A program made the position numbers and the translations under genes. A stretch of 64,000 nucleotides of DNA from Chlorokybus atmophyticus (taxonomy: Eukaryota; Plantae; Mesostigma and Chlorokybus algae): positions 424,002-488,001 of the forward strand of contig RHPI01001132.1 in NCBI GenBank assembly GCA_009103225.1. Direction: 5' to 3'. The notes under the pieces were generated by a model, which was not told the origin of the DNA, searched no databases, and saw only the letters and a list, made by a program, of their open reading frames with translations. How positions within the stretch are numbered: the first letter of the stretch is position 1; each line of letters begins with the position of its first letter. This document shows positions 5,405 through 63,918 of this stretch, piece by piece.

Positions 5405-5593
5405 ATGTTGATCATTGCTTCTACTTCATTTTTATACTCATGGGACTCATCGTGCCGCAAGAAGGCTAGTTGATATAGGTACTCGATTACTTTATTATCA
5501 CTCATGGGCACTTATGGTAGCTACGCTTAACAAGCTTCTAGGACTATTACATACTGATACAGTCATATACACATTACTTGAGCACCGCCGACA

Positions 5594-10252: not shown

Positions 10253-10296
10253 GGTTTGACTAAGTGAACGGACGCCTGGACTCCCACTCCCACTCC

Positions 10297-19848: not shown

Positions 19849-20673
19849 TAATATTCTCTACTAACAGCAAAATCGTCACACCAAGCTATGCACTGTCATC
19901 CCTGCCTATCATTGCACAAGCATACTCACACGCATGTCAGCGGCATGCAAGCACGCCTACATAACTACACTGCCGCAGCTGCCAGTACAGCGTCCGCTTC
20001 CGCCGTTGGCGCCGCCGTCTGGACCGGATCCCAGCCTGGTACTGCCGCCACGACTGCCGCCCCCCGCTCCAGGATGGTGATGCCCTGGGCGCGCTGCAGC
20101 GCGCAAGACACGCGCTGCCGGTACAGGGCCAAGTAGCCCGATAGCCTGCGCAATGGCAGGTCACGTGCAGCCAGTGCCCTCCTAGCGCATGTGTCGATGA
20201 CATCGTGAAAACTCTGGCCCCGGGTGCCGTGCGTCTCGGCGGCGAGTGGATGGAATGTGTCGGCGGCTGGGTGATCGTGGTATTTTCGCCGCTTCGCCTG
20301 CTCCGCCGCCTTCGCTGCGCCTCCCGGTTGCTCGCCGCATGCGGTGATTGTGACATCCAAGAGCATGCGCGTATCTCGACCGGGTTCGGAGGCCACCAAG
20401 TCCACCCGCCTCCCCCTCGTCTCACCCGGCAGTATTGGCATAAAACCGCTCTGCTCCCTACTGACCGAGAACCCTGCGTCACGCATCACACCATATACCT
20501 CGTCGCGCAACACGTCATGCGTTGCCGTGCGGCACCTCCCCAAGGGGCAGCGGAGTAGGTGCGCGCCCTCGGCCGTGAGCGGCCCCCCGCACAAGCAATG
20601 CTCGACGTTGACCAACAGTGGGTGCGGTAGTCCTAGCATCGTCCTAAGCGCGGTCCGGAAGATGTCGGCAGGA
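19849..20673 (-). mobile_element. 5'-truncated CRE-like non-LTR retrotransposon (CCHC knuckle + restriction-like endonuclease), flanked by poly-C on its sense strand
   Basis: CLC..HLLRC..GRCRTATHD, RRVDLV, LLDVTIT, AEQAKRRKY, FHPLAAETHG and QRVSCALQR. Stop at 19965, then an approximately 116-nt 3' UTR. G tracts at 19833-19848 and 20674-20828 (the latter with an N gap). Confidence 0.85.
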
Positions 20674-20831: not shown

Positions 20832-23800
20832 ATGGTGGTAGTGGTCTCGTTGTCCCATAATATAATGCAGTACACAATGTGCACACAAGTGAATGTGATG
20901 GACAGGAACGCGCCCGTCAAGTTCCTGCGCGTCACGGACAAGGCACTGTAGGGGTGGGACTTCGCACGACATTGATGACATCCTCAATGTCGGCAACACT
21001 GCAAATGAGCACCTCCAACACATCAAGATGTTGAAGAGGTTGATGGGCGTATGGATGCCTATGCCCCGACAAGTGCACTCTTGCACTCTTCACCCCACAA
21101 AGTGCCCTACTTAGGGCACATAATCGTGCCCAATGGCATGTGTGTACAACAGGCTTATATAGAGGCATTGGTGTCTATCCCAGCCCCCACCAATGTCACG
21201 CGCGCGGCTTCGTGCCTTTTTAAGGCTGGCCAATTACTATTGCAGGTTTGTAGGAACTTCGCGAAGATTGCGCGCCTACTCAATGAGCTCCTAAAGAAGA
21301 ACGTTGAGTTCAAGTGGAAGGAGCCATAACATCAGGCTTTCAATGAGTTGAAGCAGCGGCTGACGACATCCCCCATCCTTCAACGCCCCCATTACACAAA
21401 GCCCTTCAACCTATGCATAAATTGGAGCACAATTGGGTATTGAGCTATCCTCGTGCAGCACGACAACAACAAAGAGGAGCGCGTGGTCCTTGTCGTCGTG
21501 CTGCACGAGAACAGCTCCATACCCAGTTTTGCTCTCATAGGAGGGCGTGGTCTCTTACGCCTTTCGAGCAACAACATAGCCGAGGCCAACTGCAGCGGTT
21601 ACGAAGGGGAGTGCCTCGCAGCTGTATGGGCTGTCTCCAAGATATATCTTGGAGACATGAGTCATCCTTTCGGCCCTTCCTATTTAGCAAGCAGTTCCGA
21701 CCTATTACGGACCGTCAGCCCCTGTGCTGGCTAATGACAAACCAACACTTGACATGCAAGTTGGCAAGGTGGGCCTTGCTGCTGCAAGAGCACATTTTCA
21801 AAGTCGAACACTGCGTCACCCTCGCCGACGAAGACGCGGATGCATAAGGATTGAGTTGTAACCCTCAACGCTCCACCAACAATGCCACAGGAGCTCGATA
21901 CGAGCTCGGGCCTCTAGCACCACCTCCAGGTGTTGCCACCATATTTGCTAGTGCAGAATTGCGTGCGAGACGCAAGGTAGGCCGCCCTGTGGTAACGTCA
22001 ATGACAGCGAACACGCCCGTGCCAATAATTGGCAGCTAACACTCCTTAGTGCCTCCCCGCGCTCGAGACACCGCCGTTGACAATAAGGCCATGCGTGCCA
22101 TTGACAGTCGATAGGACATCGCGCTTGACAAACACGCTCTGCCTCTTCGTTACATTGAACACCTCCCCGCAGGACCGAGCGCACGAGACTGCGTCGGTCA
22201 GTGCAATTTGCACTTTTGGTGAACAGATGAGAAGTTATCGGCGCATCCATATCTGTCAAAAGGAGGTCACTGCGCACGGTGCCCCCGCTGCAGGCATGAG
22301 ATGTACATCCTTGTAATAATTGAGCGCTTTCCTAGCTGGGTGGAATTAATGCCTCTACCCAACAAGAGCAGCAGAAGGGGGGGGGGGGGGGGGGGGNGGC
22401 GTGCCGTCCTTGACTATGTTCTCAGTCGTCTTGACAGCTGCGCTGAGATCGTCACCGACTAAGGGACTGAGTTTGCTGAGGAGTTCACCACTCTAATCTA
22501 CCGCTGCTACATCGATAGTTGATGCACATCAAGAGACCATCCGAAACAAGATGGCCTCGCGGAGCATTCACTGCGGACTCTCAAGAAGGCTCCGCGCAAG
22601 TATGTGTAGGAGCTCCCCAAGAATACTTGAGATGACCACCTGTCATGGGTTCTTTTTAAGACACCACTTGTCCAGGCAAGCATTGCTGCGCAACAAAAGC
22701 CCATAATACCTTCTGCTTGTGTGCGACCCACTGCTGCAAAGCGACTCTTTTTACGCACAGCAAGAAGTGGACTAAGTTGTGGACATCCTCGACAAGCTCG
22801 ACGAGATGAGCTATTACCTCACCACTCGTGCAACCTTGTTCGAGAATATGATACCCATGGCCACGAACAACCTACGCATCACATAGCACCACGACACCCA
22901 CCGCGATGAAGAAATTTGTTCAGCGGCTTGTACAAGCAACGACAGCGGCGTATTATAACAGGAGACTTCGTTTACCACACGGCATGCTGAACACTAGCGT
23001 TAGGTAGCCATCCATAAAGTGATGAAGGTCTTCTCCAGCGACGTGTTGGACTTGCTAAAGCAGGACGGCAACAAAGTAAACGGTTACTAGTGTGATACTA
23101 CTGATATGATATGGTCAACCGTGCCCCTTGTCACTTGCCACAGGCGACAGGGTTTGACAGGATCCACCAACCGCACCCCTCGCGCAGCAAGAGGTGTAAG
23201 AAGTGTGGCAGCGCCACCGATAATGTGAAGATGCTGTGACGGATGCGACAAAGGCATGCACTGCTATTCTCTCACAAATTCAAAGGACAACATAACCATG
23301 GAAGAGTATTGGTGCGACGACTGGCCGTCGCATCAGACCACCCAGCATGCGCTGAAGAAGTGAGCTCTGCTAAAGTGTCATGCCCATTGTCCTCGTGTGC
23401 CAGCTTGCATCGAGCATGCTTACATTAAGACCCTCGCCCGGACTATCGGCACACCAACCCGCGCGTCATTTACCAGTAGCTAGATCATGACCTTGGACTA
23501 GCTCATGACCGTAGCCTATAGGCACTGCGCGTAGCTGTTTCAGTTGTGAATTTAGTTGCACGTTATGTTCTATATTGAGGGGGAGTTGCTTGTGGGAATA
23601 GCCAATATGACCGTTAGGTTGTGTTCTAAACAGTCATGATTTGACTTGTATAAGTAGTCGCGGTGTTCACCGGATCAGTTGGTGACACTGTAAGTGAGAA
23701 AGCTAGAAGCTTGTAAAGCGATTTAAACTATGAACACGCCGACATGGTTACTCAAAATCCCCTTAACGTGTAAGAGTTTGTCCATGCTCGTTTGCACCGT

Positions 23801-23875: not shown

Positions 23876-24302
23876 TGTTGCTTGCTCATTCACCTAACAA
23901 GACAGCATAACACATTTTCCACTCATGCAAAGAACTGTGTAAACAGCACTATTTATAATGGTGGCTTGTTGACTGCGTGTCCTACCGCACAGCATGTATA
24001 CCAAGGAGGAGATTCGCTCCACATGTCCGCACCACTCTACATCGACGGACGTGCTCCAGGAAGCACCTGCTGTGACAAGAGCTGGATTATCTTTTTGCTT
24101 TTGCTGACACCACCAAACATGATATGGCATGCTGCAGTAGCATGTCCACCAAACATGTCTTTCCTTCCAGCGGCACGAGACAACGTGACCCTCGACTCTC
24201 CTCGACCGACAAAAGGGACTCCCGCCTGTCTCAAGGGGTGTGGCTGTTGCCTCTGTTTCTTATCCATCGTGCAGAGCATGTACACATACATCACTGCGCA
24301 TG

Positions 24303-24828
24303 TGTCACAGCCCACTCGACCACCAAAGACTTGGTGCTTTTATGGTCGATTTGTGGTAATTTAATGTACCTTCCCGTTACATTCCCCCCCACTTAAGAAC
24401 GCTGACGTCCTCGGCAGCTGCGCGGTCAGCTGGGGAATTACCCAAGGGGTTTGTTAGGTCGGTCACCGGCCCCACAGCCAAGGACCGGCTAATTTTAGGC
24501 CCATACCGGTCAGCGCGCGCATAGCGCGCCGCTGCCGGCCCCACAGGTCGCGTCGCCGCGATAGGCAGGTCGCACCCTGCCGCGCCGACTGAACTGGTCA
24601 GTTCGGCGCGACTGCCATTAGGCAAGTCGCGACCCATCGATGATGGCACTCATAAAGTGACCATTTACGATTATTGGATTGAGAAACAACGACCGCGGAA
24701 TTCGTGTGCAAGGCAGGAATCGAACCCGGGTCTCAAGCTCCGATACCAATGTCACAGCCCACTCGACCACAAAAGACTTGGTGCTTTTATGGTCGATTTG
24801 TGGTAATTTAATGTACCTTCCCGTTACA
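24303..24828 (-). mobile_element. TRIM (terminal-repeat retrotransposon in miniature), 526 bp
   Basis: 79-bp LTRs (24303-24381 and 24750-24828; TGT...ACA; 1 mismatch). PBS TGGTATCGGAGC (24737-24748, tRNA-iMet type), PPT AAGTGGGGGGGAA, exact 5-bp TSD GCATG. Confidence 0.95.
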
Positions 24829-24867
24829 GCATGACTTCATGAAAGCCCTGGAGAAATCTTTACTTGT

Positions 24868-24929
24868 GCTTTGCTGTCTTCATGTCATATAGCTGCTGCT
24901 GCAGCTATATGACATGAAGACAGCAAAGC
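24868..24929. repeat. Perfect 29-bp inverted repeat with 4-nt loop
   Basis: gctttgctgtcttcatgtcatatagctgc-tgct-gcagctatatgacatgaagacagcaaagc. Confidence 0.95.
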
Positions 24930-26206
24930 TCCTCGACACAATGTCACCCTCGACCCCAATTTACCGCAAAGGCATTGCTTCAAAAAACGAAGCGCGCGTT
25001 TCAATCCGAGATATTGTGTCACAATGAGCCCTTTTACATAATACTCGAAACAGAGATTAACCTTTTGATGTGAGACTGCAGTAACACCACCATAAATCGC
25101 GGTTCTACGGCATAAGAAGAAACATCACTTCTCACTCTTTCTTGTACAAGCGAAGGAACAATGTAGAAATAACGTGGTGCCTTGATGACATGTGCTGGAG
25201 GGGATATCTATAACAGGGGGGAGCTGAGGACACGACATGGTAATTACGTATACATATACATATGCTATTAGTAACTTATAAACCACTTAAGCAGTTGTAA
25301 GCAAGAAAGGGTAATAAGCGTCATTCTTACATCAATTCCACTTGCATGAATCAATACTACATGCTAGTGTCAATGCACGCACATGGCCTTTGTCTTTATC
25401 AGCACATGCAGAACATCTTGTACGATGGAGGTGACGTGCTCATCCACCCGTCTTTCGCAATGCCATCACTAAAACAGATGCACGCCAGCGGGATGCAGTA
25501 CGAGCTCCATCTCCTCCCCTCATCTCGCTTCCCTTCTCTACCCCCCGCTTACTTGGAGGAGCTGCAGCGTCCGCTTCCTATCTTCCTCCCATCAATTCTT
25601 CTCCTCCTTTTCATGCTTTGCGCTTTGCTCCCTCCTCGCTTGTCGACACTCTCCTCTACCTCTGGCACCTCTATTTTCGCTTTCCGTCCCTTCTACACTT
25701 CCTACTAATCCCTCCCTCTTCATACTCGTACACCTTCGGGTCTTATTTTAGCATCTTTCAACCCTCCTCTCACCCGTGATGTGTTCACATCACATGTTCT
25801 TTCAAAGTTGCTGCTGCATTGAGTGAATTCTTGTAGCATCAATATACACTATTGTCTTATAATAAACTTATGCATTTGCGCTGTGCAATTTCGCTTTGCG
25901 GCTGTAGCTGCTTCGTGCTTCATTTACCCGTAACTTGTACTTGAACTCTCAGTTGTTGTATGTATCAGTGTTTAAGGCAAGTCCATACCATGAAGTACAC
26001 TGGACATTTGCTGGAGGCATTCTCAGTGGAATCCGGCAGCTGAAGTCGTCTGCACCGCGTCTCCGCTTTGCACCCACCTGTAGTACGCACCAATATCTCA
26101 TGAGGATTAAGCAATATGCTTCCTCGTGTGTGTGTGTGTGTGTTTGCGCGTATGTGTGCGCATGCATTATGCTGATTGTGCGGGTGTTTAAAGTGTTTTA
26201 TTAGCA

Positions 26207-28650
26207 CTCACTATTGTGTCCATTGTGCTTCAGTCATGCACAAAGCGAGTTTGGGCGTAATGTTGCATGCTTCAAACAAAGGTGTACGCGCCATGGACAG
26301 CTATCACAGTAGTGCCCAGCCCTACAAATGCAGGGGTGAGGGCCTTGCGGAGGGCAACTGCAACATTGTCGTTTGTGATAACCTGCTGCCGCTGAGGTGA
26401 GGGAAGTTTGCATTCCTTGAATGAACTCTGCTGAGAGCATGAGCAGAAGGAGAATGGAACTAAGGGAGGCAGGAAGAACAGCCATCCGATATAGAGAAGA
26501 AGAGTACAATTTTACACCCATGCCATCGTCTGCATGTTGCAGAGCTTGTTGGAGGCAAAGAGCCGGCACGCACGGGACATAAGCGTGAAGATGAATGCGA
26601 GTCCAAGAGACAACAAAACTTGCCGCTCCGTTCCAAACTGGCTTACAAAGACGAGCACGAAAATTAAGGCGAGCTTCGGCAAGCAAACAATGCACTCCCA
26701 GTAAAAGAATTTACGCTTGTACCCTGCGTAGAGAAACCCGTAGTACTCAGCTGTTGCTGCCGTGTGCAAGGAGTCCCGCTTTATGTACATTATGATGAAG
26801 GTGACGAGGGGGGTTTGCACACAAGAGATAATGATGCCGGGGATGCCAATCGTTGCCACCATCACCATGTGCGTGCCCCTGTAACAGCGCTGCTTCATGG
26901 CAAGCTCCCAGAAGCTGCCGACAGCTGAGGGTGGCACATTGGGGCCGTCACTGTTGACAGTTATGCATGAGAAGAGTGCCAAGATCACGTCATGACCGCC
27001 GGCCACAGGAAGAACTCCGCAACAATGACGCTCAACGCGTATCGCGGCTTCAAATAGTCTGCAAATGACGTCTCCTCCATCTGCTTGGGTCTTAGTGTCA
27101 ACTTGTGCAGCAGGAAACGGTGTTAAAGTCTCACAAGGTGCAACACAAAACAATGGCAGTCGTGACGCTACGTATATACCCATGTGGCGTGGAGGCAGTG
27201 CCATCGTAGAGACTGGAAAACGGCAGGGAGGGCTACAGCAACGAAGGGGAGGGCAGCGAAGGCAAGGAGGACCTGGAAGGTCTTGTCCAGGTGCAAGCCG
27301 TTGTCAAGGAGGCAGTTCGAAGAGAGGAGAGGTATGCCAATCGTGCAGGCGCTCGAGATGACCCCCAATGCACGTGACACAAATGCAGGTCAGCGCAGCT
27401 GTACAGCGAAGGTGATGGAGGTCACCTTAAGGTACGACATAAGCAACTTCGCCATTGCAGGAATTGCTACTCCCCGCGTCACTCCCATATGCTCGTCAAC
27501 CGCATCGAGTGGCAGATCTGATGCTGAACGGATGTTCAACACAACCGCCAGTACGGAAACAAGCGCAACCCCGTTCATAGCAAAGGCCGTAAGAAACTTT
27601 CTCCCACAGCGCTTGCATTTAAAGCTGCCGACCTATTGGTGACAAGCAAGCTGTCACCAAACTGTCAAGTGTTGCCACAGTGCAGCGAACAAAGGTAGAT
27701 AAAGAACAACAATTCTCTGCGAAGTTGCCTGGCCAGATAGGCCGTATCCTTCCTAGCAGACATTGCACATGTTGCCTTTCTACCCCGTTGCACACTGAGC
27801 ATCTTCCGTCCAGGTCCCGTTTTCAATCATGTCCTTCAGCAACTATAGAGGACAGCTCAGACACCTTGGAGTAAACTGTACGCAAATGACTGCAATTTAA
27901 ACACACAGCATTACATGTTAACTTACGCTGTCGCGGCCTATGAATGAACATGCTCTCCCAATTCGGCATTGCACAACTTGATTAACCAACAAGGCAGACT
28001 GCTTGTAGCCAACCTGCGCCACAACCTAGAGGCAAGCACCCTGCCAGTCAGCAAGAAACGTCCCAAAAGTGTTCATGCAGTCGCTACATGATTGACCCAA
28101 TACTGTTACTCACTTGTGCACCACCGTAGCAGGTTGCAAACTCTAGGCATTGCAAGCAAATCAGGTTGTTTGGATCAAAGCTGATAGACAGAATACCATT
28201 GGTTGGTGAGTTTGCACCTTCATGCCTTTGCTCACAGAAACCACCGTAATGGCACTGCCTTGCATACACAGACATGTTCTTCCTCAAGTACAGTATATAA
28301 ACACCTGTACATTGGCTGCTGGCAGGGAACGCACAAATCGCCTTGATCATTGGTGTGCTCACCCTGGATTGGTGATGTAAAGAGTATGGCAACACCATTA
28401 CGTAAGAGAGAGATGTGTATCACAGGTGTCAGTGTTGTGCATACCAGCACGCAGGCTTAGACTCCAACATGGATGCGTGCTTCCAATTCAAGGACGGTAA
28501 TATTAATTGTACTCACGTCAGGACTGGAGCGCACAGCAATTGCATTGTACTGTGCAACACCACCTGCTATGGCCTTTTAGCAGCCAGCAAGGCCACGAGG
28601 GGCAAGCAGACCTTCTTGTCTTTACTTGCTCGGTTGTGCATACGAGTGCG
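26207..28650 (-). pseudogene. Degraded 3' half of Pmp-like multi-TM gene B (paralog of 49658-52138)
   Basis: NSDGPNVPPSAVGSFWELAM..YGFLYAGYKRKFFYWECIV, AMAKLLMSYLKVTSITFAVQL and GILSISFDPN..CLQC..ATCYGGAQ. Frameshifts relative to the intact copy; 5' end replaced by a chromovirus fragment. Confidence 0.88.
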
Positions 28651-29050
28651 CAGCAGTGGTGAGCATTGGGCAACACGTGTTGCCCAGCACGAAAAACATA
28701 CGGATCAAGAGGCGGGGAAGCTTCTACCCTAGTGGATTGGCCCTTTTGAAGTGCTTGGTCCCATTGGCGTCGTGGCGTATAAGCTTCGCCTCCCGGAGCA
28801 CTTTAAGATATATGGCGTGTTCCATGTGTCGTTGCTAAGGTAGTACAAGAGTAATGGAAGCGTCAAACCCCCACCTCTACCCGAGTTGGTGGATGGTGAG
28901 TGGGAATATCAGTAGAGGCAATCATTAACACGCCGTCCTCATGGTAGAAACCATTCTCCCGAGTACTTCGTACAATGAAAGGGCTACGGTGTAAAACACA
29001 ACCCAGGGTCTTAACACTATGCATGTAACTGTACATTAAAATTGGAACTT
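28650..29050 (+). mobile_element. Chromovirus-type Ty3/Gypsy fragment (integrase C-terminal GPY/F region + start of chromodomain)
   Basis: VL.STKN, KLLP*WIGPFEVLGPIGVVAYKLRLPEHFKIYGVFHVSLL and PPPLPELVDGEWEY..EAI. Confidence 0.8.
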
Positions 29051-30772
29051 GGCAAATTGCCAAGATTTAATGCAAGAGTTCTCCTTGCAACTCACGGAGA
29101 CTTAACCCAAGCATAGCTAGCCCGTGATGTAGCTAACATGCCCTTCCATACATGTGCACAAAGCCTGCACAATTCCAAGCCAAGTCTACCAAGTAAGGGT
29201 GCACCCACGAGAGAGCAATCATGAAGGTTGGCCACCTTCATGTACTGTTGCTTCTCAACCAGATTGTATGTGACGAAGGCCGTCACAAAGTAGGTGGGGA
29301 GGAGTGCAACGCGGCTAATAATTACGCTTTAAGTGCTTAGAAATACGTGAGATAGACAATTAACCAGCATGTATGCTTGCTGCTACACGACAGACATTGG
29401 TGTGGAACCATTAGCCACGAATGTCTACATCATAGATGTTAACATCTTATATGTAGATGTCTATAAGATGGACATTGATGTGGGCTAGCCAGCCATAAAT
29501 GTCTATGTTATATATGCTTTTATTATGTGCAAACATTTAAAACGTCGAATATCTTGCACATGAATGCGAATATGCTACATACAAACGTTGAAATCACAGC
29601 TTGGATCTTGATATTAAAGAGACTCGTGTTCGAGAATATGAGAAGAGTCAAGCAATTATATTGCACACAAGGGTGTTGATTTTACTAGCAACGAATGTTC
29701 ACATTGTAGAAGACATTGTGGATATTATGCATGCACTTATGAAAAGTGTCAAAAGATGCATATGTTGATATCGCACGAGTAGATGTAAACATCGAATGGA
29801 GGTATGTTTGTATTGCAGACTACAATACTGATATCACAGAGATTGGTATCCACAACCGGTGGCCTCGAGACCGTGTGGCCAATACCATGAGATTATAGTA
29901 AAAGCTCATGGTTGCTCATACTTACACAAGATGGTTGGCCGCCTCAGATTACACTAGGGTCCAAACAAGGCACCATTGGTGGAGACACCCACTATCCTTA
30001 AGTGATCACATAAGGCACTTGGGGTATATAAGTAAGCATGCTCAGTAGGCAAGGATGCGGGACTTGGGTCTACCTTGCCTTGGCGTGCTCGCTTTGTGGG
30101 ACTTCATGTGGGGTGTTCAGGTGAGAGGCCGTTGAAGGGGTGCCAAAGCTCTTCAACCTCAAGGAGTGAAGCTTGTCCTTGTGTAGCACTTGTGTGTGAG
30201 TGTGTACACTTGGAAAGCGTGCTTACACTTGCATGTGTAAGTGTATGCACGGTGAGATAGCATTTGCACTTGTGCATGAGTACTAATACTTGTGTGTGAG
30301 TGTGTGTACGTTGCCAACACTTGAAGGTGAATGTTTTCCACATTAAGAGAGAGTGCTTGCACTTGTGTGTGCGCACGACTCGTGCTTGCACTCTATTTTG
30401 GAAGTAAAGTGCAAGACCCTTTTTGGCAAGAACTCAGTATTCCAGCCTAAGGTGGCGTTACTTGTATCTTTAAGTTAAGAGGGCTCCAAAGTGGCATAGC
30501 CTAGCACAAGTTGAGAGTGACTTATCGTTAGCTGGTGAGTGTTATGAGAAGACTACACATGAGTAGCCTCGTGCACAAGTGTGAGGGCGCTGTTAATCGG
30601 ATAGCACGCAACGACGGTCGACCGTCTCTCAAGTGTGGTACAAGTGTGTCAAGCTTGGGCCGGCGGTACAATTTGCTTCGAGCCCGCAAATGCAGGTGTG
30701 ACCTTGTGAAGCTTGGCAGCCGATGGGTCGTCTTCATGTCAATGAGATGAAAATATTCAAAATAGTGATAAC

Positions 30773-31302
30773 TGTAACGGGAAGGTACATTACATTACCA
30801 CAAATCGACCATAAAAAGCACCAAGTCTTTTGTGGTTGAGTGGGCTGTGAAATTGGTATTGGATCTTGAGACCCGGGTTCGATTCCTGCCTTGCACACGA
30901 ATTCCGCGGTCGTTGTTTCCCGATCTAATAATATCGTACATGGTCACTTCATAAGTGCCATCATCGATAGGTCGCGACTTGCCCAATAGCAGTCGCGTCG
31001 GACTGACCAGTTCAGTCGGCGCGGCAGGACGCGACCTGCCTGTCGCGATGCGACCTGTGGGGCCGGCAGCGGTGCACTATGTGCGTTGACCGGTATGGGC
31101 CTAAATTGGCCGGTTCTTGGGTGGTGGGGCTGGTGACCGACCCTAAATCAGCCCCCTGGGAAGATTCCCCAGCTGATGGGCGCCAGCTGCCGAGGACGTC
31201 AGCGTTCTTAAGTGGGGGGGAATGTAACGGGAAGGTACATTAGTTTACCACAAATCGACCATAAAAAGCACCAAGTCTTTTGTGGTCGAGTGGGCTGTGA
31301 CA
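30773..31302 (+). mobile_element. Second copy of the same TRIM family, 530 bp
   Basis: LTRs 30773-30852 and 31223-31302, PBS-like TGGTATTGGATC, PPT AAGTGGGGGGGAA, TSD ATAAC/ATATC (1 mismatch). The internal region matches 24382-24749 in reverse complement. Confidence 0.93.
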
Positions 31303-32479
31303 ATATCAGTCACTAATAGTCACGCACACAGATAAAAAGACTTGCTTTAAACATATTAACGACAAACACATGGCACACTGTGTTGCATGCAATGCATGAA
31401 GCTTGATATTGTGCGCATTTGTGATAAACTGTCATGTGTGTAACATGCAAATGGCGATAAAGATACCGATTGCGACTATGTCGCTGAATGTCATGCAAGG
31501 AACATAGTACACATACACCACCATGTGCTGAGTTAACAGCGTAACTTAACAGCAGTAACAATGACAACAGTGTAAATCCACAAGTGCGGTGCAAAGAGTA
31601 ATAGCATGCATGCATGGAGCTGAATGGCGCCAGCACTCACCTTTCTGAAGCGGTCGAAGCAGCGACATGTGCTTGATCAGAACGTAAATATGAAGGCAAG
31701 TGTTTGGAGTGAGACGGCGGTAATGGCGACAGTAAGGGCGTCGGCAACAAGGAAGCTCTCAGCCAACCACGGGAACGCTAGCGTGCAGCAGGTAGGGCCA
31801 CAAGTCCAGCACGCCTCCACAAAAGCAGCAGCCGGTACAGCTCCACCCGCCGCAAACCCATTGGCGGCAACCTCCACCACCATGTGGACAACGACAACAG
31901 CTAGGTGATGAATGTTCATACCTTACGAAGTGCCTTATCAAGTGCAGAAACAGGGTCATGAGAATGTACTACTATACCTTGAGTGTAAACTCGGCTTTCT
32001 CGCTATCTGCAATAAGCATAAATAGCCTAGAGTCGGTTACCGACATTGTCCGACTCCCCGTTTCATCAATGTCGCGCAAAAGTCGTATTATTATATTGCA
32101 CATCAAATCCTAGCGAACTCCCGTAGGGTAATGTGCCCAAACTTTGGACACCATATACCAATAAAAACACCCATCATGCAATTGGTGTCTGATTGAGGTG
32201 TTTGATGGGGCAGCTGGTAGCTCAGCTGGCTGGCTGTCAGCTACGCGTGTCAGCTCATTTTTAGTCAATCAGAGCAGTTCACACCGATTGGTCCAAGACC
32301 AATTGCTAAGGCAGCCATTTGCAAGCAGGCTGTGCCCAACTTTGGACGGTTGGGGAATAGCCTGCGTGATGTAAAGCCCTCGAGGTTGTGGCGGTGCTGT
32401 GGCGGACAATCTTGGCACACTTGTCGTTTGGTGACTCAGTGTAGATGGTGGCGGCGGTGGCGCAAAGGTGGCGCTGCCT

Positions 32480-35400
32480 GGACCTGGCGGAGGTTATCGT
32501 CGAGCTGGGCCAAGACAGCACCCATGCCGAGTTTGCTCCAGTCGGTGTGGAGAACAAAGGGCTTGGTGTAGTCTGGTCGCTGCAGAATGGGGGCTGATGT
32601 GAGCCTGTGCTTCAGCTCCTCGACAGCCTGTTGCTGGGCCTCCTTGCAGCTCCACTCTGTCTCTTTCTTGAGGAGTTTGTTGAGGGGGCGCGCCACCTTA
32701 GTGAAGTCTTTGACGAACCTCCTGTAGTAGTTGGCGAGGCCAAGGAAGGCACGCAGTCGAGTCAAATCTGTCGGGCTGGAAATAGATGCCAGACCCTCCA
32801 CCTTGGCCTGCTGAAGGTATACGCCGTTGGGCACGATCATGTGGCCGAGGTAGGGGACCTTGTGGGTGAAGAAAGTGCACTTGTTGGGGTGCACAGTCAT
32901 CCCTACTGAACTCTCCTTAGTACCTCCTCGATGTGGAGGAGATGCTCTTCTGCGGTGTGGCTGAAGACCAGGTTGTCGTCGATGTAGCACCGTGCGAAGG
33001 AGCATACCTCAACGCCTTTTCCATCACGCGCTGGAACTTTGCTGGCGCGTTTTTCAGCCCGAAAGGCATGACCTTCCAGTGATACAGCTGCCGGTTGCCC
33101 CAAAATGCCGTTTTGTGCTTGTCTTCGGGCTTGATCTCGATCTGGTTGTACCCCTGCCGCATGTCCAGAATGCTGAACACGATACGTGAGCCGACGTCGT
33201 CGAAGATGCCCTCTGCGGTTGGCATTGGGTACCGACCCTGCTTGGTTTTGTTGTTGAGTGGGCGATAATCCCCACACATCCGCCATTCTGTCCAAGTGCC
33301 CTCTGAGTCCTTTTCGAGGGGCATGACTGTGGCGGCAGCGAAGTTGGACGTGGATTCCTCGATGAGTCCCGCCTCCAGCAATGCTTTGCGTCGCTGTCCA
33401 CCAAGTCTTTCTCCAACTTGCACAGCTTGTACTGTCTTCTGAGCACCGGTTCTTCGTCGACGAGGTCGATGTCCATCTGGTACACTGAACACTTGCCCAG
33501 CTCCTCGACATTGAATTTGAATTGAGCTCTCCATTTGTTGAGGAGCGCCTCCAACTGCTCCTTTACAGATGCTGTAGCCAAGGGTCCCATGACGTCATCC
33601 CATGACGTGGCGGTTGCCTTCACAGGGATGTCCTCCACTGTGATTGCTGCCTGCTCCTCCATGTGAGCGATCTCCAGGGCGGTGTGGGTCACGACAGCGT
33701 CGGAGCGATTGACCCACCCCCCAGACAGGTTCCGAGATCCTTGAGAGACACCTGTCGGTCTTGAATGGCGAAGCAGATTTTCAGTAGCCAAACCATACTG
33801 TTTTGGTCCATGGCGCAACCTAGGAGTTGCCTCTGTTGACTGTCGGTTAGCGCGCAGCTTGTGATGCTGCCCGAAAAGAAACCCATGGCGCGTTCGCGCT
33901 CACGTGCGTTGGGCTCTTCCAGTTGGTTCGTTGTGCGGTCAAAGACCATGCCGTCCCCGCCATTTTAGAAAGCATAAGAGCCTGGATATGAGACCAGCAT
34001 GGGGAGTGCTCTGCGTGGTTCGCCCGGTTGGTTGCACTAATGGAAGTGGGCGTGGTCGTGGCGAGAGACTGGTTGCGATGTTCTGCCATTCTCGAGGATG
34101 TCATCCACGAACAAGTTGCTGGAACGTGAACTGAGTAGATGCTCCGCGGCCGTCAGCTATTCCACGGCGGCAAGGTTGGTCCACTTGGCACGGACACGAT
34201 GTGCACGTGACCGATGCCGATCAGCATTCATCTTGGTTGGATGTCTAGGATGGAACATACCACACGATAGCTGTGCACGTGGTAATGGCGATCATCCTCA
34301 GAGTGGACGTTCTCGGTGATGTACGCTAGGGGACGTTGAATTTGGTGGTGTCGCAGCAGGTGAATGACTCGCAGCAGCTCCCAGAAAAGAGTGGAGCGTG
34401 GGTCGTCCAACCCCTGTCCTGTGCCGGCCCTGGAGTGCCCTTGGCACTCCCATCTAGCAATCAACACATTCACATTGCTCAAGGCAATGAGATGATGGAG
34501 CTGAGATGAGGCGGATGTCTTGAGGCAGTGCCTTAAGACTTCCATGCATGGCAGACAACGGTAGGAGGTGTGGATAACGCAAGTGCTGACGCAAATGATG
34601 GCGGACAGCAGTCTGAGCATGCGGATCAAGGTCACAGTAGTAATACTGTGACCTTGATTACTGTGTTACCTTGATACCGGTGTTGAGGAGTGCCGCCAAG
34701 CCGCTGCCAATCCCGTCGAACAGTTTCAGCGATGTGAACCCTTGTTGGCGTCATGCCGCACTGAAGTCCACAACTCTGGTGGCCACGGTGAATTGCTCCG
34801 CAAGTTGGACGTCCTCGTGGTAATCCGGGACGCGTATGGGAAAGGGCGTCTTGTCCAGCAACACGCGCGCATCCACCTCTACTCTCCAGCGCCGTTCTGT
34901 TGGGTCTTGCAAGGCTACCTCCTGGGTTGCTGTCACCTGCGTGTCGGAGTAGGGCATGAGGGATGTGGCGACAACAGTAGCGGTGGCTCCCATGAGCCGG
35001 CGTGCACGTGTGGGCAACACCAGGTCGAAGGGGATGAAGCCAATAACAGAACCATCTCCGCTGCGCCAGCCGGGCCTGAACCATGCTTGCTCGGTCCAGT
35101 TGTCCATGCCAATGGCTACGAGGTAACTGAAGTCCTGCCCGATCAACAAATCATAGCTGGTGGCGTTGGTAACCACACATTGCTGGGCCAGCTGAGTGGT
35201 GTGCGTGGGGTCCAGCCCAGTCAGGGTGATGGTGAGGACTTCCTTGGTGATGCCAACAGGGCTTTCGCGTCCTCCCGTGGCGGTGTTAATCTCAAAAGGG
35301 CAGCTGTCCAGTGACGCTGCCGTGAGCCCCAAGGCTTTGGCCAAGTGTCTGCCAATGATACATGGTTGTGCCCCTCCGTCCAACATGACGCGTTTGGGTG

Positions 35401-38400
35401 CGCGTACGTTGATTTGCACATGCTTGCCCTGGTTGGCAACCATGACGGCGTTGGCGTTGAGCCGCGCGCGATCGCTGGGACGTCGAGGAACAGCGTTAGC
35501 TGTGGGGTGTTGCTCCAGGGTGCCGGACCTCGAGGCTGCCATGGCTCCTCTTGCTGCAGTAGGAGCGGTGCCCTGTCCTTGTGCGCTTCCTTGTCCGGTT
35601 CCATCCCCCTGCCCTGGCCCTTGTCCGGGTGATGCCGGAGCCGGTGGTGGATTGCGATGAGGAGTCGGGTCCATACTAGGAGCTGGTGGTGGTGGTGGTG
35701 GAGGCACTCGTTCTATTGTTGTCACTGCCTCCCTGTTGATTCAGTAGAGTGCATGAGCGGCCTCCCGCACCAGCGTACCCTCCCATGTGGCTGAAGGGTG
35801 ATAACGCCAGTCGTCGAACTTTTCCACCTGAGGCATAGGCGTGAGGTAGACGGCGCGTACCAGCTGCCTTCTCAAGGCGTCGCCAATGGTGGGTAGTCCA
35901 AGGATGCTCCGCATGTACGTATCCCACCGACCTCTGGTGATCCCGACGTCAATCACTGTCATGGCTCGCCCTCGCAGGGTGTCGGGCGAGTCCTGCTGTC
36001 GACGCTGGTTGTCATAGGCCTAAGCGATGCGCCGAAGCTGCCATGCTGCCTCGATGCCTGGTAGATGCATGAGCGCGACCTTCATGGTGACTCACGTCAC
36101 AAATGCCGTAGGGACACATTTAGTCCACCACTTGGTCATAGGCTTGCCGTACAGAGCGCATGAACGCACTCATCCAATGCAGTCTCGACGGGAATGCGAA
36201 TAGTGGAACTATGGGGTGGTTGTTGATCAATCATGTGAGTATCTGAGCCCGTTCTCCCGTGGTTTGCTGCAAGCGCAGCATCCCTCTGAGTGCGGCGCCC
36301 TCCGGGCCTTGTTGTTGCAACGTCCCCCGGATGGCTTCCTGCAGTAGCCGTGTCCGCAACTGTTGCTCCCCGTATGTTTGTTGACCAGCAAGATAAGGGT
36401 GAGCTCCTTGATGAAGATAACCCCTCCTTGGTTGACGCTGATTTGCTGGCCACATATTGGTCATATTGACGATGAGGGCGGCGATTTCCCCCCTAAAATA
36501 CCTGCTCAACACCCTCGTTTAAGCAAGCCTAATGCGCTCCCTGTCCACGTTGGCGGGATACTGCGGCCTGTTTCACCCAAATGTTGCCATATGCTTCAGC
36601 GCGGGTGTCATTGATGATGACTCCAGGTGGCGCTTCGTCCATGTCTCGCTGGACATCTTCATAGCAGTCCCGCTCGCGGCGGCGGACCACCTGTTCTTGC
36701 TGCTCATGGGTTTGGCGAACCCAATCCAGTGCCTAGAAGCGACGGCATTGCTCACGCCATGAGCACGTGTTCAGCTCAAGATCGTTGCCCAACGGGCGCA
36801 CAGCAAATGCTCGAAACAGTTGAACCACCTGTGGGTCCAAGTCGTCGAAGTGGTCCAGGTTGGATGGCTCTTGGTTGGGTGGTTTCAGCAAGACTGGGTG
36901 CTCTGGAGCCAGCCGATGACGGTTGTACAGATTCCAGAACATGGTGAGGGTCTCGTCAGTGATGCGAAGGGTGCAAAAATCGTGACCAAGCTCTTAGCGG
37001 TGGAGAGGGACATCATCGACACCATATAGCAGAGCGTCCTCGTCAACGCGCCACCCGAACTGATCACCTCCTGCATAAGCCGGGGTGATAGGCATGCCAG
37101 CCGCTGTTTGGATCGGCCCCTGTCCGGGTGGGCGCACTGCTGCTGGAATGTCAATTGCGCCGGTTGAGGCTGCGTCTGCTGTCGTGGACGTGGAGGGCCC
37201 TGCTGCTGTGGCAGCCGCGGTGGACGTCGATGGTCCAGCCATGGTTATTTCCAAAGCACCGATACTGAGCTGGGCGGTAGCCACAGTACTAATGGGCTGC
37301 GCGGTTGTGTTGATAGCGGCGATGGTTGCTGCTGGTGAAGCTGCTGCCGCCGACTCAGCAGCGAGGACGGCCGAGGTCGCAGCGATGGTTGCCGCGAGCC
37401 CTTTGTCGAGCGCACTGGCAGCTGCTGCCGTGGCCGCTTGCGTGGCAGTTGAGACGGTGGGATCCGCAGGTGCTGCCGCGGATGCAGACAATGATCCTGA
37501 GACCCCAGTGGTGGCAGCTGGTGACGATGCTGCGGTGGTCGCTGCTGTTGTTGCCGCTTGACTAGCAGACCGAGCTGCTCCCACTGTGGCGGATGGCCCG
37601 GCGTCTCCTCGGGCTCGCCGTGGTGGCTGTATGCGCATGGGCGTGGCGACTGCCTTACGCTTGGCTGCCATTGCTGCCCAGCGCGCCGTGTAGCACGCGC
37701 GGTATTCATCCTCCTTGCCCTTCAGCATCGCGTGAAGCTCATCCATCCGTGCTGTGAGGGCAGCAACCACCTCTGTGTCCTCTGCGACAGGCGCCTTGTG
37801 GGCGGCGTTGCCTGCCTTGGGTCCACCTTGATGGTTCTGTTTGTGTTTTGGAGGATTGTTGTTCCCCCGATAGCCGTTGTTGGCTGGCTCCTTGCCCTTG
37901 TTGCCGTTATTGTTGTAACCGCTGCTGCCCTTGTAGCTGCCTGAGGGTCTCAACTCAGGGTGCTTGGTGTAGCAGACTGCCTCCAAGTGTCCATTTTTGT
38001 GGCAGTGGTCGCACACCAGGTTCGCGTACTCCTCTGTGCAGTTCCTCTGGTAGTAACCATGACGTCCACACCTGTCGCAGACGACAGGGGCAGGGAGTGC
38101 AGCGTGAGCTGACTTCACAAGAGGTTTGGGTGTGCTGGTGGTGTAAGACTTGCGGTCATGTCGGGGTCTAGAGCAGAGGCAGGAGCACGTGAAGGACCAG
38201 AGTTCGTATCCAATACTGCTCATCCACACCTGGCGGTCATGGATGGCTTGGGCTTTTTTTAAGGCCTGAAGCAGCGAATACCCTTGTGGTCGGGTATTGT
38301 TGAGAGCGTTGTCCACCGTCCTGTTCAGTGCAGGCTCTAGTTGGCTGACGAACACCACGGCAGCAGCTTCGTCGCTGAGGATTCTGTAGTTGGTGTCCTT

Positions 38401-40099
38401 CAGCAGCTTGACCGTCCGGGTGTAAGTGCGCAGATGTCCTCCCCTGCTTTGCGCCTGAAGTGACGCAACTCCTCCACCTTCTGACTGGTTTGTGGTGGAA
38501 ATGTGCGCCGAAGCGCCAGGTACAAGTCCTGTAACGGTGACAACGTGCGGTCCACCCTGATGGTGAGCGCGGGTTCCCGCATGCTGACCGAGCCTGACGA
38601 CAAAGTACTGCCGACAGCTGTGTCTCGGATCCCTTGAGTCCTTGTCTGAACAGGAGTATCATGTACAAGGGCACGTTGTCGTGCTTGTGCCTCCTGAAGT
38701 GCAGTTTGTTGCTCCACCATTAGTTTGAACGCCAGAAGTTGCACCTGAGAACGGCGTGCTTGCTGCGCTGCCGCCAACTCACGGTCGACCAATGCAGGAT
38801 CAACTGCTGGTATGTCTGCTTCAGCTGTCAGCTGTGCTGCGGCCAGAGCTTCAGTAAGAGTAGGGCCTTGCAGTGGGGCAGCTGGAACAATAGGCGTGAC
38901 AGGGACGCCAGGAGTTGATGTCTCCATGGGCAGAGCTCCGGTGCCGGCCAGAACTCCGTACCCTCCAATCTCATGCTGTGCAGCAACTGACCTATACACC
39001 TCATGTGCCTCGTGGTCTAAGCATGTTGCAGCCATTCAAAAAGACATAAGACCTGACCGGTTGGGAGTCTTGATCGCATGGTAGCTCATCCTGGAGTCGA
39101 ACTCGATGATCTATTTGTCCAGTGGTGTTGTACCAGGACGTCCGGAGAATAAGACCATGAGTGGAGCCGGATGCCTCCATGTCGTCGCCGTCAAGCTGAT
39201 CGACGAAGCTTTCAACTCGATGATGAGACTGAGTATGTCTGGAACGGGGTGTTGGGGAAGTGTGAGGGCTGTCGATATTGTTGTCGCCCTCTCCTTCGCC
39301 GTACCGCCCGGAAGATAGGTTTGAGCCCAACCAGCTGTCGAAGTTGCTGGTGGTCTCCTCCACAACAGGGAAAAGCCCGTAACGATGGGTGGACTCTCTG
39401 ACTGCTGGGGAGTCACTCATGCAGGTTGCACGGTGAGCGACGAAGAGAGCGAGGCAGAGTGTGTGTACCCTACTGGTGCTCCCCGAACGCTACCACTCAA
39501 CACACTAGTGCTTGGCAATGTTGCACTCTGTGCTGACAATGATAACACGACACTGATGCAACCACCGTTGCTGCAAAGATGCAACCCACGCTGATGCACG
39601 ACACTCACTTGCACAAGGAGGATGACACTGTAAGTTAACAAGCCACTACTAGAGGTACTGCTGCTTTTACAGTTCCTTGCATGAGGTCAAGATAATTCCA
39701 CTGTTAAGTGAGGTGTATGAATGCGGCAACCTGTAGATACCACACTCTGATGCGGACTACACAACGTGCACCCACGAAACCACAATCACATCAAGTGACA
39801 AGCAATGCCCGTGTGCATACGCTGCATTCTCTCACGTGTAGATGTGTCTTGGCAACCGGGGCGGCAAGGTGATGCAGTCACATCAAGCCACAACCTCCAG
39901 AGAGCAAGTCCAACGCGCTCCGAAGATCAACATCCGTACTTCGTTATTCCAAGTCTCTCAATTTCCACTTACAGTGTCATCAACGTACAGAGGCTAAGTC
40001 CTAAGCCTTTATAGTCAAGTGTCCGTTGTGAGTTGACTTAGGTCTGATCTAGGTCATTTCGTAAACTAGCCGTTATCTTAGTACTAAAGTCAACTCACA
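32480..40099 (-). mobile_element. Ty3/Gypsy LTR retrotransposon (gag-unknown domain-protease-DNA methyltransferase-RT-partial RNase H), 3'-truncated and frameshifted
   Basis: Gag zinc knuckles CDRCGRHGYYQRNC and CDHCHKNGHLEAVC. Protease VMLDGGAQPCIIG. RT WRMCGDYRPLN, FSILDMRQGYNQI, KTAF, MPFGLKNAPAKFQRVM and YIDD. RNase H start PFVLHTDWSKLGMGAVLAQ. LTR-like 5' end TGTGAGTTGAC at 40099. No integrase or 3' LTR was found. Confidence 0.92.
33790..34740 (-). pseudogene. DNMT3-like C5-cytosine methyltransferase catalytic domain inside Gypsy pol
   Basis: Motif I LKLFDGIG (LFDGIG at 34706-34723), IV ARWECQGHSRAG..GL.DPRS.LFWE (Cys 34444-34446), VI ENV (34306-34314), VIII SRAHRVRAKWTNL (about 34172-34210), IX ERERAMGF (33878-33901) and X RQLLGCAMD (33805-33833), all in canonical order. 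Confidence 0.9.
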
Positions 40100-42444
40100 A
40101 CTGCTCAGCGTCGTGCGGGACCCATGTTGGTAGCCAGGGTTGATGCCTGACTGTAGGCATAGCTGATGGGGAAGTGCTGTGATGCCGGTAGCGCGGGAAT
40201 GATGCTTGGCTGTAGGCATCCTCGAGGAAGTTGGCCCCTCCTGGACCGCTGGCATGACACCTCTTCTGCGCCATATCTGCCTTTCTTGTGATGCGTGCTT
40301 GTGTTAGGCGTTCCTTCTCCTCAGCAACTGCTCTCAGATTTTGGATGATCTCCGGGCTGGTGAGGATGGTGGCATGTCTCGTATATGTGCGGGTTGCTTG
40401 GGGGAGTTGACCATGGCCGGGCAACACCTCTTTGGTGCCAAGATCTTCTTCTGGAAAGTCAGGTACATTCCGTGCACATTACACAGGTTCTGGCCCTGGC
40501 TCCTGCTCCTCTTCCTGCCCATATCCATGTGTGAACAATGCCTTCAGCAGGACAGGGCTGATGGTGCCTGGCTCTGGTTGCTGCACAGCTTCTGCCCCAG
40601 ACGCATGAAGGCGATTGTCAAGTGCATGTGCGTCCACTGGCCACAACCTTGCAAGGTTACAACTTGTCTTACTGTATGCATGATCTCTAGCGCTTGTCCG
40701 TGCAACTGATGCATGTATTGCGTGCATGTCACTATCAGGAATCTAACATGTGCATGTTGCTTGCAGTGTACCTGTTTTGCGAAAGCCGTTAATGATGTTG
40801 TCCAGGGCCATGGCCGAAAGGAAAGGGGTGGCAGTGAGTTGTATGAACATCTTCTTGCACATCTCGACGTTCGGGTTGGCGGACATGACGCGCATGTACT
40901 GCTGTTTGAAGGTTTGCTTGAAGCTCCGAAAGCAGGAGACGTCCAAGACCTGCAACAACAGAACAGGTGTGTGAGGCCTATGCACAAAAGCACTCATGCA
41001 TGTGTGTGTAACACTGCGACTAACTCAGTGCTTGTGTGCAACGTGTATGCATACCTGCATAAGGTGTGTCAAGTGCGAAGGGAAGGTCAAGATGTGCACT
41101 CCGTTGCTGAGGGCAGCTCCCAACCTGTCGGGGTCAAACCTGTACGAATGGCCATCCACAAGCAGCAGGCATGGGTTGTCTGTGGTAGCCCCACCAGGTA
41201 TATTCAGCATAAACTGGGTCATCCATTGCCTGAAAATCTAAGTCATCATGTACGCATTCTCCTGCACAACATGCACTGAGTTAGCAACTGTGTGCAGCAT
41301 GCATGCTGTCAACCACTTCACACCTACATGGCCAGCCCGCTTCCAGGGGGGGCATCCTCCAACTAGTCGTTTGTCACACGCTTGCCCTTGCAGATGTAGA
41401 GAGGGGGCATGTGTGCACCTGCTGCGTTCACACATGCCATAATGCTCATGTGCTCTCGGTTCCCCGAGAGTCTATGGTAGGGGTTGCGGAAGCCTCTGGG
41501 CGCAACCACCTTGACAGTGCCCAGGTTGTCCGGTTCGAGACCTATCTCATCCGCATTCCAAATGCGGGAAGGGGTGAGGCGCAGGTCATACACCAACCGT
41601 TCATACACAGCAAAGGAGGACACAGCTTCGGGGGTGGCCCACTGCCAGCGACACCTATCCAACCCTTCTGCCACTCTCATACTGAGGTTGTGTCTGGACA
41701 GGAACATACGGCACCACTTCCTGCCCGGGATCTGAAACTCTCCAAACCTCCTCAGCTTCTCCTCGTTGCCCTCCAGCAGGGCTATCACCTGTTTGCTGAA
41801 AGTTAATCTTTTGTTGCAACTGTCATACATGCATACATGACACTCACCCTGTGTTGCAGTGCAGACACTGTGACGGCGTTGGCGTGCCGGCACATGTCAA
41901 CAACCCAAGTCACTAACTGTTCTTCTTCACTCTTAGACAAGATTGGAATGCGCCCCGGAGAGCGGGGGTCGTTGAACTTGTTTGGGTTGCGGAAGTAGTC
42001 ACTGAGAGTGCTCCGGGGTACACCAATGTCGTCTGCAACCTCACGCAGTCCTCTCTCACTAGCGCGCACCAGTTTGTATGCAGCCATCATCTTCTCCAGC
42101 AATGTAGAGTTGCGGGAGTACATAGCATATTTCAGCCCTTGTGCCTTCACTAGGGAGCGCAAGTCTCAGGTGCTGCGTTTGCGCGCTGTACTCTTGCCTT
42201 TGGCTGGTGCAGCTGGTGTAAAAGGCTGCTTGCGCTTGCCCTTGGCCTGAGGGGTGCGGTCCTTGGGGGCCTGCCAAAAAACCCAGAATGATGAGAGTTG
42301 ATAAGTGCAGCAGTCATTGCTGTCCAACCTCTCTGATTGGTCAGCCAGCAAGCCAGCAAGGCAGTGTGTAGCTTTACTTGTATAGTCTCAAGACAGCAAT
42401 AGTACATATGCAAACAATCAACTCACCCCACTGTTGCCCGTCAT
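40095..42444 (-). pseudogene. Intron-containing pogo/Fot1 transposase (HTH_psq, CENP-B HTH, DDE_1)
   Basis: GLREVADDIGVPRSTL, LSKSEEEQLVTWV, PGRKWCRMFLSRHNLS.R, RIWNADEIG, SIMACVNAAGAHMPPLYI.KGK, LLLVDGHSY and HLTHLMQ|VLDVSCFRSFK. In-frame TGA near the N-terminus and another stop after RVTND. Confidence 0.88.
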
Positions 42445-43170
42445 ATCACTGTCATGAGTGCTTCGACTCTCTTGGCTGCGCCTTGCACGCGTAGACACCA
42501 TAGTGGCAATTCGAGCAACACCACCAACAAGATGCACATGCATATTGCAGCCTTGTGTTGCAGCTATATAGGCCCACATATGTCAACTAGTAACAAGGTT
42601 AACCATTCCCCACCCTTTACACGCGGTTTCAACATGAATAGCACAAAGTGCACTTTTCATCTAATGCGTAACGATATGTGTGGTTTGGCTTTATGGGCCA
42701 TAACTTCATGCCTAGGCGGCCTAGTAATGTGATGTAAGATGTATAGTAGACTACATTCAATCACCTACCCAATGCAAACCACCGCTCCGCCAAAGCTGCT
42801 CTCATGGCTTATTGGCGAGGAATCAAAGTTAGCACTACACACACGCGCCAACTGCAACATTTCAAATCAATTTGTATTTGCGCCCGAAACGCTAACCAAT
42901 GAGCGTCTCGAGCTGGTGGTGTGCTCCTTGTGACCAATGAGAGCACACTACCAAGTCTTGGCCCAATTGGCCGCGGCAAACAACATCTACAGCCAAAAAC
43001 TACCGGCCATAGGCCAAGTGTCCGAAATTAAGAAATGTCCGAAGTTAGGACACAGTACCCTACTTCGGCATGCTGCGAGCCCAAGTTCGCCTTAGCAAGC
43101 CCAGCTGCGATGCCTCAAAGCTGGAGGCTGCCATGTGGCGCATCAACGCGGCGGGGCGGCGACGGGCAGC

Positions 43171-52138
<8,968 letters not shown>

Positions 52139-52686
52139 GTGATAACAGAACACTTCGAACATCTGCACAGTCAGCATAATGCGTGCGCACACACACAAAC
52201 ACACGAGTGCTTATTGGTGCGTTCTACAGGTTGGTGCAAAGCGGAGGCGCGGTGCAGACGACTTCAGCTGCATGATTCCACTCAAGATGCTTCCAGCAAG
52301 TTTAGTATTCATGCTATCAACTTGCCTTGAACACCAGTACATACAGCAACCAGAGTTTGCACTTACTGATTGTTTTTTTGCACAACAAATGGACGGAGAG
52401 TACAAAAAGCGGAACTCCTGAGAGTTCGAGTACAAGTTAGGCTAAATGAAGCACGAAGCAGCTACAGCAGCGAAGCGAAATCATGTAGCACAAACGCAAA
52501 AGTGTATCTAGAAGGGGTTTGCTGTTGTGTATGCTATGAGGACATGCTATGAGGACATAATCAATGCAGCAGCCTTGAAAGATATGGTGCGAAAACATTG
52601 GCCATGTGGGCAGGTGAACGCATATGCATGTGCATGCTTGCATGGCTATCAGGGCAGTAGGGGTAGAGTATAGTGTTAGGTAGTGA

Positions 52687-58200: not shown

Positions 58201-58450
58201 CACCTTCTTAACTTAAAAAGTTTGAAACCTTTTCAACACCTTGATGTGTTGAAGGTGCTTATTTGCAATGTTGCAAAAGATGAGGATGTCATCGCTGTAG
58301 CCACGCTTGAAGTTGCACCACTTCAGTGCCTTGTCCATGACGCGCTGGAACTTGGCAGGCGCGTTCCTGTCCTCCACATTCACTTGTGTGCACGTTGTGT
58401 ACTGCATGACATTATGGGACAATGAGACCACTTGCTTCTTCCACCATCTG
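55300..58450 (-). mobile_element. Degenerate Ty3/Gypsy remnant with C-terminal PHD finger (inverted paralog of 20829-23400)
   Basis: NAPAKFQRVMDKAL...YSDDILIF, YACRSNNIAEANYSSYERECHAVVWA, LFPLARGNRYILVMIE, AEIITNQRT..GEF and CEKCGSAIDDAKMMVCDGCDKG. Confidence 0.85.
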
Positions 58451-63723: not shown

Positions 63724-63918
63724 CTGCGGCAATGGCCAACACACGCATGTACTGAGTGTTGAGAGAGAGCCACTTCACACAAGGAAAGAACATGGAAGCA
63801 CTGCACACCGAATACAATGCATAAGGTGCACTTGCTGCACTAACAGACAGTAGTGCACTCCTGTCTTTTGGTCATCAGCGGTCCACTATATACATACTCT
63901 ATGCACGTGCATAATATG

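Follow-up and report, generated by a model that had tools for sequence, protein, structure and literature searches.

The Gypsy retrotransposon KnitGypsy-Dnmt3, described from the charophyte alga Klebsormidium nitens, carries an intronless, unrearranged DNMT3-type cytosine methyltransferase (DNMT) domain within Pol, and its DIRS-like terminal repeats are arranged as A-coding-B-A-B (legend of Fig. 4c in the available part of PMC5890265). In K. nitens, according to the same source, copies of the element carry methylation and are silent. When the Klebsormidium Gypsy DNMT was expressed in yeast no activity was seen, an outcome the authors regard as inconclusive since human DNMT3B failed too. A DNMT3-type domain is also found in Pol of SymbioDIRS-Dnmt3 from Symbiodinium, a DIRS element with a tyrosine recombinase that is reported as an independent capture and is likened here by its description alone; its domains methylate CG de novo in yeast (available part of PMC5890265). 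A third group, the EpiLTRs of Cymbomonas and Euglena (one of the two a chlorophyte), consists of LTR retrotransposons with a cytosine methyltransferase. According to the accessible text (bioRxiv 10.64898/2026.05.21.726589), these are distinct from Gypsy-DNMT3, which that paper assigns to streptophytes.

We analysed a 64,000-nucleotide stretch of eukaryotic DNA with short spliceosomal introns (the window), which contains a Gypsy element with a DNMT domain. An earlier note on this DNA had cited captures of this kind as a precedent in concept; the precedent is confirmed and proves closer than that, as the element belongs, on sequence grounds, to the KnitGypsy-Dnmt3 lineage, a kind already described in a charophyte alga (PMC5890265, as far as available). 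The K. nitens protein KFL_009030040 (P0318), which we take as a KnitGypsy-Dnmt3 copy, shares the window's order of protease, DNMT, reverse transcriptase (RT) and RNase H and falls in the same clade, albeit on a long branch, with 42% identity to the window DNMT over 258 aligned residues. The two differ in motif IV, which is Pro-Cys in P0318 and Glu-Cys in the window. The window element furthermore has a different host, is dead and truncated, and possesses a longer gag region without detected relatives. It has lost the 3' end, whereas the A-coding-B-A-B repeats of KnitGypsy-Dnmt3 are seen in related loci. In contrast to the EpiLTRs, where a DNMT sister to DNMT4 lies at the 3' end of pol together with DAM and a chromodomain, the window domain is DNMT3-like and precedes RT; neither a chromodomain nor DAM was present among the Pfam matches of 26 + 7 relatives.

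The element and its surroundings

The element reads on the minus strand as gag-like region, protease, DNMT, Gypsy-type RT and RNase H (Table 1), which bears out the Ty3/Gypsy identity proposed earlier. The DNMT was correctly placed between protease and RT, while the span then given, 33790 to 34740, falls slightly short at both ends. Translation of the minus strand recovered all six major C5-methyltransferase motifs named in the earlier note in canonical, unrearranged order, spread over three frame pieces. The middle piece matches PF00145 above the curated cut-off (E 5.5e-7 and 2.2e-7), and Pfam gave no match for either the motif I piece or the motif VIII-X piece when these were submitted separately. 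With X placed at the breaks, the domain scored 358 bits against a profile of its relatives, covering positions 7-339 of 340, and the top score from 500 shuffles was 4.5 bits. By its sequence, the region is a complete DNMT3-type C5-cytosine methyltransferase domain inside a Gypsy element, in a broken copy.

Table 1 Features of the element and of the rest of the window (window positions; strand given where assigned)
Feature	Position	Strand	Evidence or remark
Possible 5' terminal repeat remnant	39633-39685	-	79% like 23922-23974; weak
Gag-like region, frameshifted; two CCHC-type knuckles (~37950-38090), Ala/Thr-rich stretch	36994-39489	-	weak P0074 and P0161 matches; no Pfam match
Broken coding stretch, gag to protease	35741-36993	-	no relatives among fetched proteins
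Aspartic protease, LDGGAQ at 35366-35383	35030-35460	-	PF13975 E 1.1e-5, under curated cut-off
DNMT domain, DNMT3-like, C5-cytosine type; ~330 codons	~33755-34750	-	4 stops and 2 frameshifts
Motif I (SAM-binding FxG), LKLFDGIGSG	34700-34729	-	translation
Motif IV, WECQGHS; catalytic Cys present, Glu replaces Pro	34432-34452	-	translation
Motif VI, ITENV	34306-34320	-	translation
Motif VIII (RxR...W.NL), AHRVRAKWTNL, DNMT3-type wording	34172-34204	-	translation, profile
Motif IX, ERERAMGF	33878-33901	-	translation, profile
Motif X, RQLLGCAMD	33806-33832	-	translation, profile
Ty3/Gypsy reverse transcriptase, YIDD at ~32975-32989, frameshifted	32766-33396	-	PF00078 E 7e-14
Connection domain and first part of RNase H	32493-32765	-	PF17919 E 1.5e-15
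Intact-looking intron-rich gene, glucose/sorbosone dehydrogenase-like plus malectin domains	5590-10260	-	
Decayed P-type ATPase-like gene pieces	12442-15013	-	
Duplicated genes, Chlamydia-PMP-like repeats plus TRP-like membrane region	18498-19831; 25944-28649; 43577-52357; 58750-63918		some interrupted by transposons
Non-LTR retrotransposon fragment, presumed restriction-like endonuclease end	19968-20560	-	resemblance; no Pfam match
Decayed Gypsy 3' half (RT end, RNase H, integrase)	20895-23375	+	
TRIM-like element	24303-24829	-	perfect 5-bp target duplication
Near-perfect hairpin	24864-24935		
TRIM-like element	30773-31302	+	
Decayed HTH and DDE_1 transposase fragments	40743-42165	-	most CpG-poor repeat measured, o/e 0.53
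Decayed Gypsy 3' half (RT end, RNase H, integrase)	55285-58432	-	PHD trace at 55381-55476
(TTAGGG)n array	63922-64000		up to window end; likely chromosome end

In-frame stops interrupt the DNMT at 34658-60, 34157-59, 34037-39 and 33965-67, and the frame changes near 34505 and near 34235. All four stops are TAR, and a genetic code reading TAR as Gln was considered; it was rejected, given a TGA break at 34751-53 and intact-looking host genes that stop at TAA. The protease is 42-52% identical to those of relatives. Further breaks occur inside RT, and the element ends abruptly at ~32493, within RNase H, so that integrase, PHD finger and 3' repeats are absent from this truncated copy. No LTR pair for this copy emerged from a self-comparison of the window, and ARAGORN found no tRNA. 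In a small pairwise search, the putative 5' remnant matched the 3' end of a neighbouring same-sense Gypsy copy over 53 nt (E 2e-8). With its stops and frameshifts in DNMT, the RT breaks, the cut RNase H and the missing integrase, PHD finger and paired repeats, the copy is very probably a dead, 3'-truncated retrotransposon of the Gypsy-Dnmt3 lineage, and the earlier statement that it is inactivated holds. Between DNMT and RT, the frame shifts within a run of G near 33720, and no in-frame stop is present there. We considered natural recoding at this site and set it aside; decay is the more likely cause, as the nearest relatives read through openly.

The two decayed Gypsy 3' halves in the window are 66-68% like the RT-RNase H of this element, and their remaining parts hold no DNMT. 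The two TRIM-like elements are 530 bp long, 90% alike and bounded by 80-bp TG...CA repeats. An Rfam search over 24000-43500 returned microRNA matches on one hairpin only, all far below gathering scores.

Downstream of coding regions, TGTAA occurs 61 and 43 nt past the stops of two intact-looking genes and 253 nt past that of a third, against a background of 0.97 per kb per strand; it is absent within 600 nt of the stop of a fourth gene, whose end is uncertain. According to the available part of PMC1868727, UGUAA occurs only in later-branching chlorophytes. As for (TTAGGG)n, the part of PMC3622300 at hand places it, within green algae, in two Chlamydomonadales clades, the tested streptophyte algae having other repeats, and notes that it is common outside green plants too. 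Taken by themselves, these two features hint at a chlorophyte, whereas the named kin of the element are streptophytes.

Relatives, domain orders and trees

Searching with the RT piece yielded 316 relatives from 545 candidates; among the 120 listed, 12 have PF00145 in the same protein, and those with a name belong to Closterium, Calypogeia, Marchantia and Klebsormidium. The C-terminal DNMT piece returned 561 cluster representatives (best match 54%, from Spirogloea), and the domain of a relative, used as query, found 83 matches out of 2972 candidates, KFL_009030040 included. No chlorophyte occurs among the named family matches, a minority of all matches. A word-index search with the 98-residue middle piece found none of 20 candidates to be related, and none of 44 pattern matches in viral contigs was a relative; phage records gave distant methyltransferases with 25-32% identity among the best 10 of 584. 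In metagenome DNA, 57 of 180 pattern matches were related loci.

The resulting set of 344 proteins contains the domain in 254 cases, 151 of them whole. Two domain orders were found: DNMT before RT (type A, 46 proteins) and DNMT between RNase H and integrase (type B, 59 proteins), with 149 of the 254 domain-bearing proteins lacking RT in the same protein. The window and all named streptophyte proteins are of type A. A single change separates the two orders in the DNMT tree and likewise in the RT tree, with SH-aLRT supports of 95 and 98 (12 type A and 26/51 type B rows; larger FastTree versions were also built), and in both trees the window sits within type A beside its nearest relative, P0003. 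DNMT and RT have been inherited together, and the domain is present across a wide family. As the trees are unrooted, one capture followed by relocation is indistinguishable in them from two captures.

A DDE integrase follows RNase H in both P0003 and the metagenome locus L003, and a PHD finger closes many relatives of either domain order. A survey of terminal repeats covered 23 loci with a PHD end, many of them too short or decayed; the A-coding-B-A-B arrangement is complete in L031, and the B-A-B end is present in L025 and L054. The type B loci L013, L020, L030, L036, L040 and L042 have a GC content of 52-64%.

The dN/dS check suggested earlier was run on relatives from other hosts. The DNMT of the stop-free pair L002/L003 gave 0.14. 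Over 73 pairs with dS of 0.1-1.5 the median was 0.40 and the maximum 0.83, these pairs being non-independent and mostly decayed copies of one family. In the relatives, the values fit purifying selection on the DNMT. Neither of the two outcomes that the earlier note named as refuting its reading occurred, since PF00145 matches the domain and many relatives retain it. A heavily broken copy without an LTR pair might be read as a single event in which the mRNA of a host DNMT3 was captured, as an insertion nested in the element or as a chimera of the assembly, the domain then having no role. Such an origin is highly improbable, since proteins of K. nitens, Closterium and Marchantia as well as metagenome loci have the same domain order, and the DNMT and RT trees agree.

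In the literature outside most subscription journals, including the available part of PMC5890265, we found neither the Glu-Cys variant, nor the second domain order, nor the readthrough site described below. The PHD end of the relatives was likewise not found in the portions in print that were accessible, although KnitGypsy-Dnmt3 may carry a PHD finger (PMC5890265, in part). No report of a chlorophyte Gypsy-DNMT3 was found within the same literature.

Enzyme type and the Glu-Cys motif IV

Comparison of a 24-relative profile with solved structures ranked DNMT3A/B/C first (E 1e-23 to 6e-17, with DNMT3A at 1e-23), followed by DRM (6e-12) and M.HhaI (4e-7); DNMT2 was also below DNMT3. The fold gave the same ranking: a model of the intact WEC-type domain of P0003 (pLDDT 96) had DNMT3B/3A as top structure matches, with a TM score of 0.71 when normalised to the query length and 0.81 when normalised to that of the target, matches to viral methyltransferases being weaker (best E 6.5e-16, TM 0.61). 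By similarity rankings made on relatives, the domain is thus placed nearer DNMT3 than DRM, DNMT1, DNMT2 or bacterial enzymes, in agreement with the affinity first read from its motifs. The human DNMT3A and DNMT3B catalytic domains are the best solved-structure matches by both sequence profile and fold, yet structural alignment to them gives only 21-23% identity. Unlike the human proteins, the element's enzyme lacks PWWP and ADD domains, and additional segments follow motifs I-II and separate motif VIII from motif IX.

Across the 151 whole domains the residues expected of an enzyme are well kept: the motif I Gly and the ENV Glu in 150 each, the catalytic Cys in 143, and of the two motif VIII Args one in 145 and the other in 144. 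More variable is the position preceding the catalytic Cys, where 83 domains have Pro and 56 have Glu. Motif IV of the window lacks the Pro-Cys dipeptide and has Glu-Cys instead. The earlier note was right to see WEC with the catalytic Cys kept, but the change needs to be viewed as a variant of the family. Pro and Glu exchange about 13 times across the tree, compared with a mean of 45 after shuffling, and on this sequence evidence WEC is an inherited family variant, neither decay nor a peculiarity of this copy.

The effect of this residue on catalysis can be argued from precedent in either direction. The motif IV Pro has been treated as required, its loss predicting inactivity (PMC2965745, available part), while an active DNMT5 has Ser at this position (bioRxiv 2021.10.01.462825, available part). 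It is conceivable, if rather unlikely, that the domain is a non-catalytic or weakly catalytic module for binding nucleic acid, at least in Glu-Cys members, and for example binds cDNA or protects it against methylation by the host. The replacement of Pro by Glu in 56 of 151 domains would fit such a module, as would the negative yeast assay of the K. nitens domain (PMC5890265, available part) and the missing CpG depletion in the window copy. On the other hand, the 56 Glu-Cys members retain Cys in 55, Glu in 56 and the two Args in 51 each, which is near invariance, and Pro-Cys members keep these residues to a like extent. The roughly 13 Pro/Glu exchanges indicate a tolerated state as opposed to one decayed clade.

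A candidate leaky stop and a proposed methylation of new cDNA

We examined the 31 loci, representing about three subfamilies, that contain both the DNMT end and the RT start. Of these, 23 have TAR-CAR-YY in frame at a distance of 261-282 nt upstream of RT, the stop being TAG in 18 and TAA in 5; the exact TAG-CAR-YYA is found in 5 loci. In one further locus TAR-CAR-YY is not in frame, and it is absent from the other 7. The stop is conserved in a Marchantia-like subclade (L001-L004, L008-L012 and related loci, e.g. L003:5083-5091). In L003, a 1369-codon gag-protease-DNMT frame is separated by one stop from a 1047-codon RT-RNase H-integrase-PHD frame. Since CAR-YYA is the readthrough context of TMV (PMC2754532, available part), we infer that TAR-CAR-YY is a candidate stop-codon readthrough site; in one subfamily, translation might instead restart at a Met close by. 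No TAR-CAR-YY stop is present in the window copy.

Our favoured overall reading, which we hold with somewhat more belief than doubt, is that the window contains a dead Gypsy-Dnmt3 copy whose intact relatives have a DNMT that is likely set free from its polyprotein and whose likely role is to methylate newly made cDNA of the same element. An intact element would translate DNMT within its polyprotein, and its protease would presumably release the enzyme, which may then be packaged in the particle. By analogy with SymbioDIRS-Dnmt3, the freed enzyme could act on DNA with a preference for CG. New cDNA would become methylated in the particle, and the most likely benefit is that a copy would integrate pre-marked like host repeat DNA. 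In the one subclade, a leaky stop after DNMT would yield more gag-protease-DNMT than RT and integrase. The idea of cDNA methylation was already put forward in PMC5890265 (available part). The catalytic mechanism itself we consider slightly better than an even proposition.

In the duplicated stretches of the window, C/T changes affect 122 of 479 CG, 67 of 491 CHG and 165 of 1476 CHH sites. They are about twice as frequent at CG as elsewhere, which fits methylation of CG sites in repeats by the host. The CpG o/e is 0.84 for the DNMT stretch and 0.53-0.83 for other repeats of the window, with one fragment at 1.03. The DNMT stretch is therefore not more CpG-depleted than other repeats, and there is no footprint of self-methylation in this copy.

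The enzyme might also be active for the purpose of self-restraint, methylating integrated copies or element RNA and so damping transposition to the benefit of both host and element. This option was raised in PMC5890265 (available part). The methylated, silent state of KnitGypsy-Dnmt3 copies would accord with it, and a DNMT encoded ahead of a leaky stop would be made in large amounts. Host enzymes explain silent methylated copies equally well, however, and the DNMT itself lacks a chromatin-targeting domain, the PHD finger being located after integrase; we view self-restraint as improbable, a shade more so than the binding module. The conserved stop after DNMT yields a direct prediction on enzyme stoichiometry in the particle.

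A single dead copy adds little, since elements of this kind are published, but the family is much wider than the available text of the 2018 paper conveys. It supplies natural intact Pro-Cys and Glu-Cys domains with which the one negative activity test can be repeated. In the accessible part of PMC12344493 (Table S1), 1 of 12 chlorophyte species has DNMT3. If a core chlorophyte carries a Gypsy-Dnmt3 element that groups within those of streptophytes, a reading we hold as somewhat less likely than not, the lineage would have diversified into two domain orders, an active Glu-Cys variant and a form controlled by readthrough. It would then be either green-plant-wide or horizontally moved, with a range beyond streptophytes, and genomes without a de novo DNMT3 could acquire one through the element.
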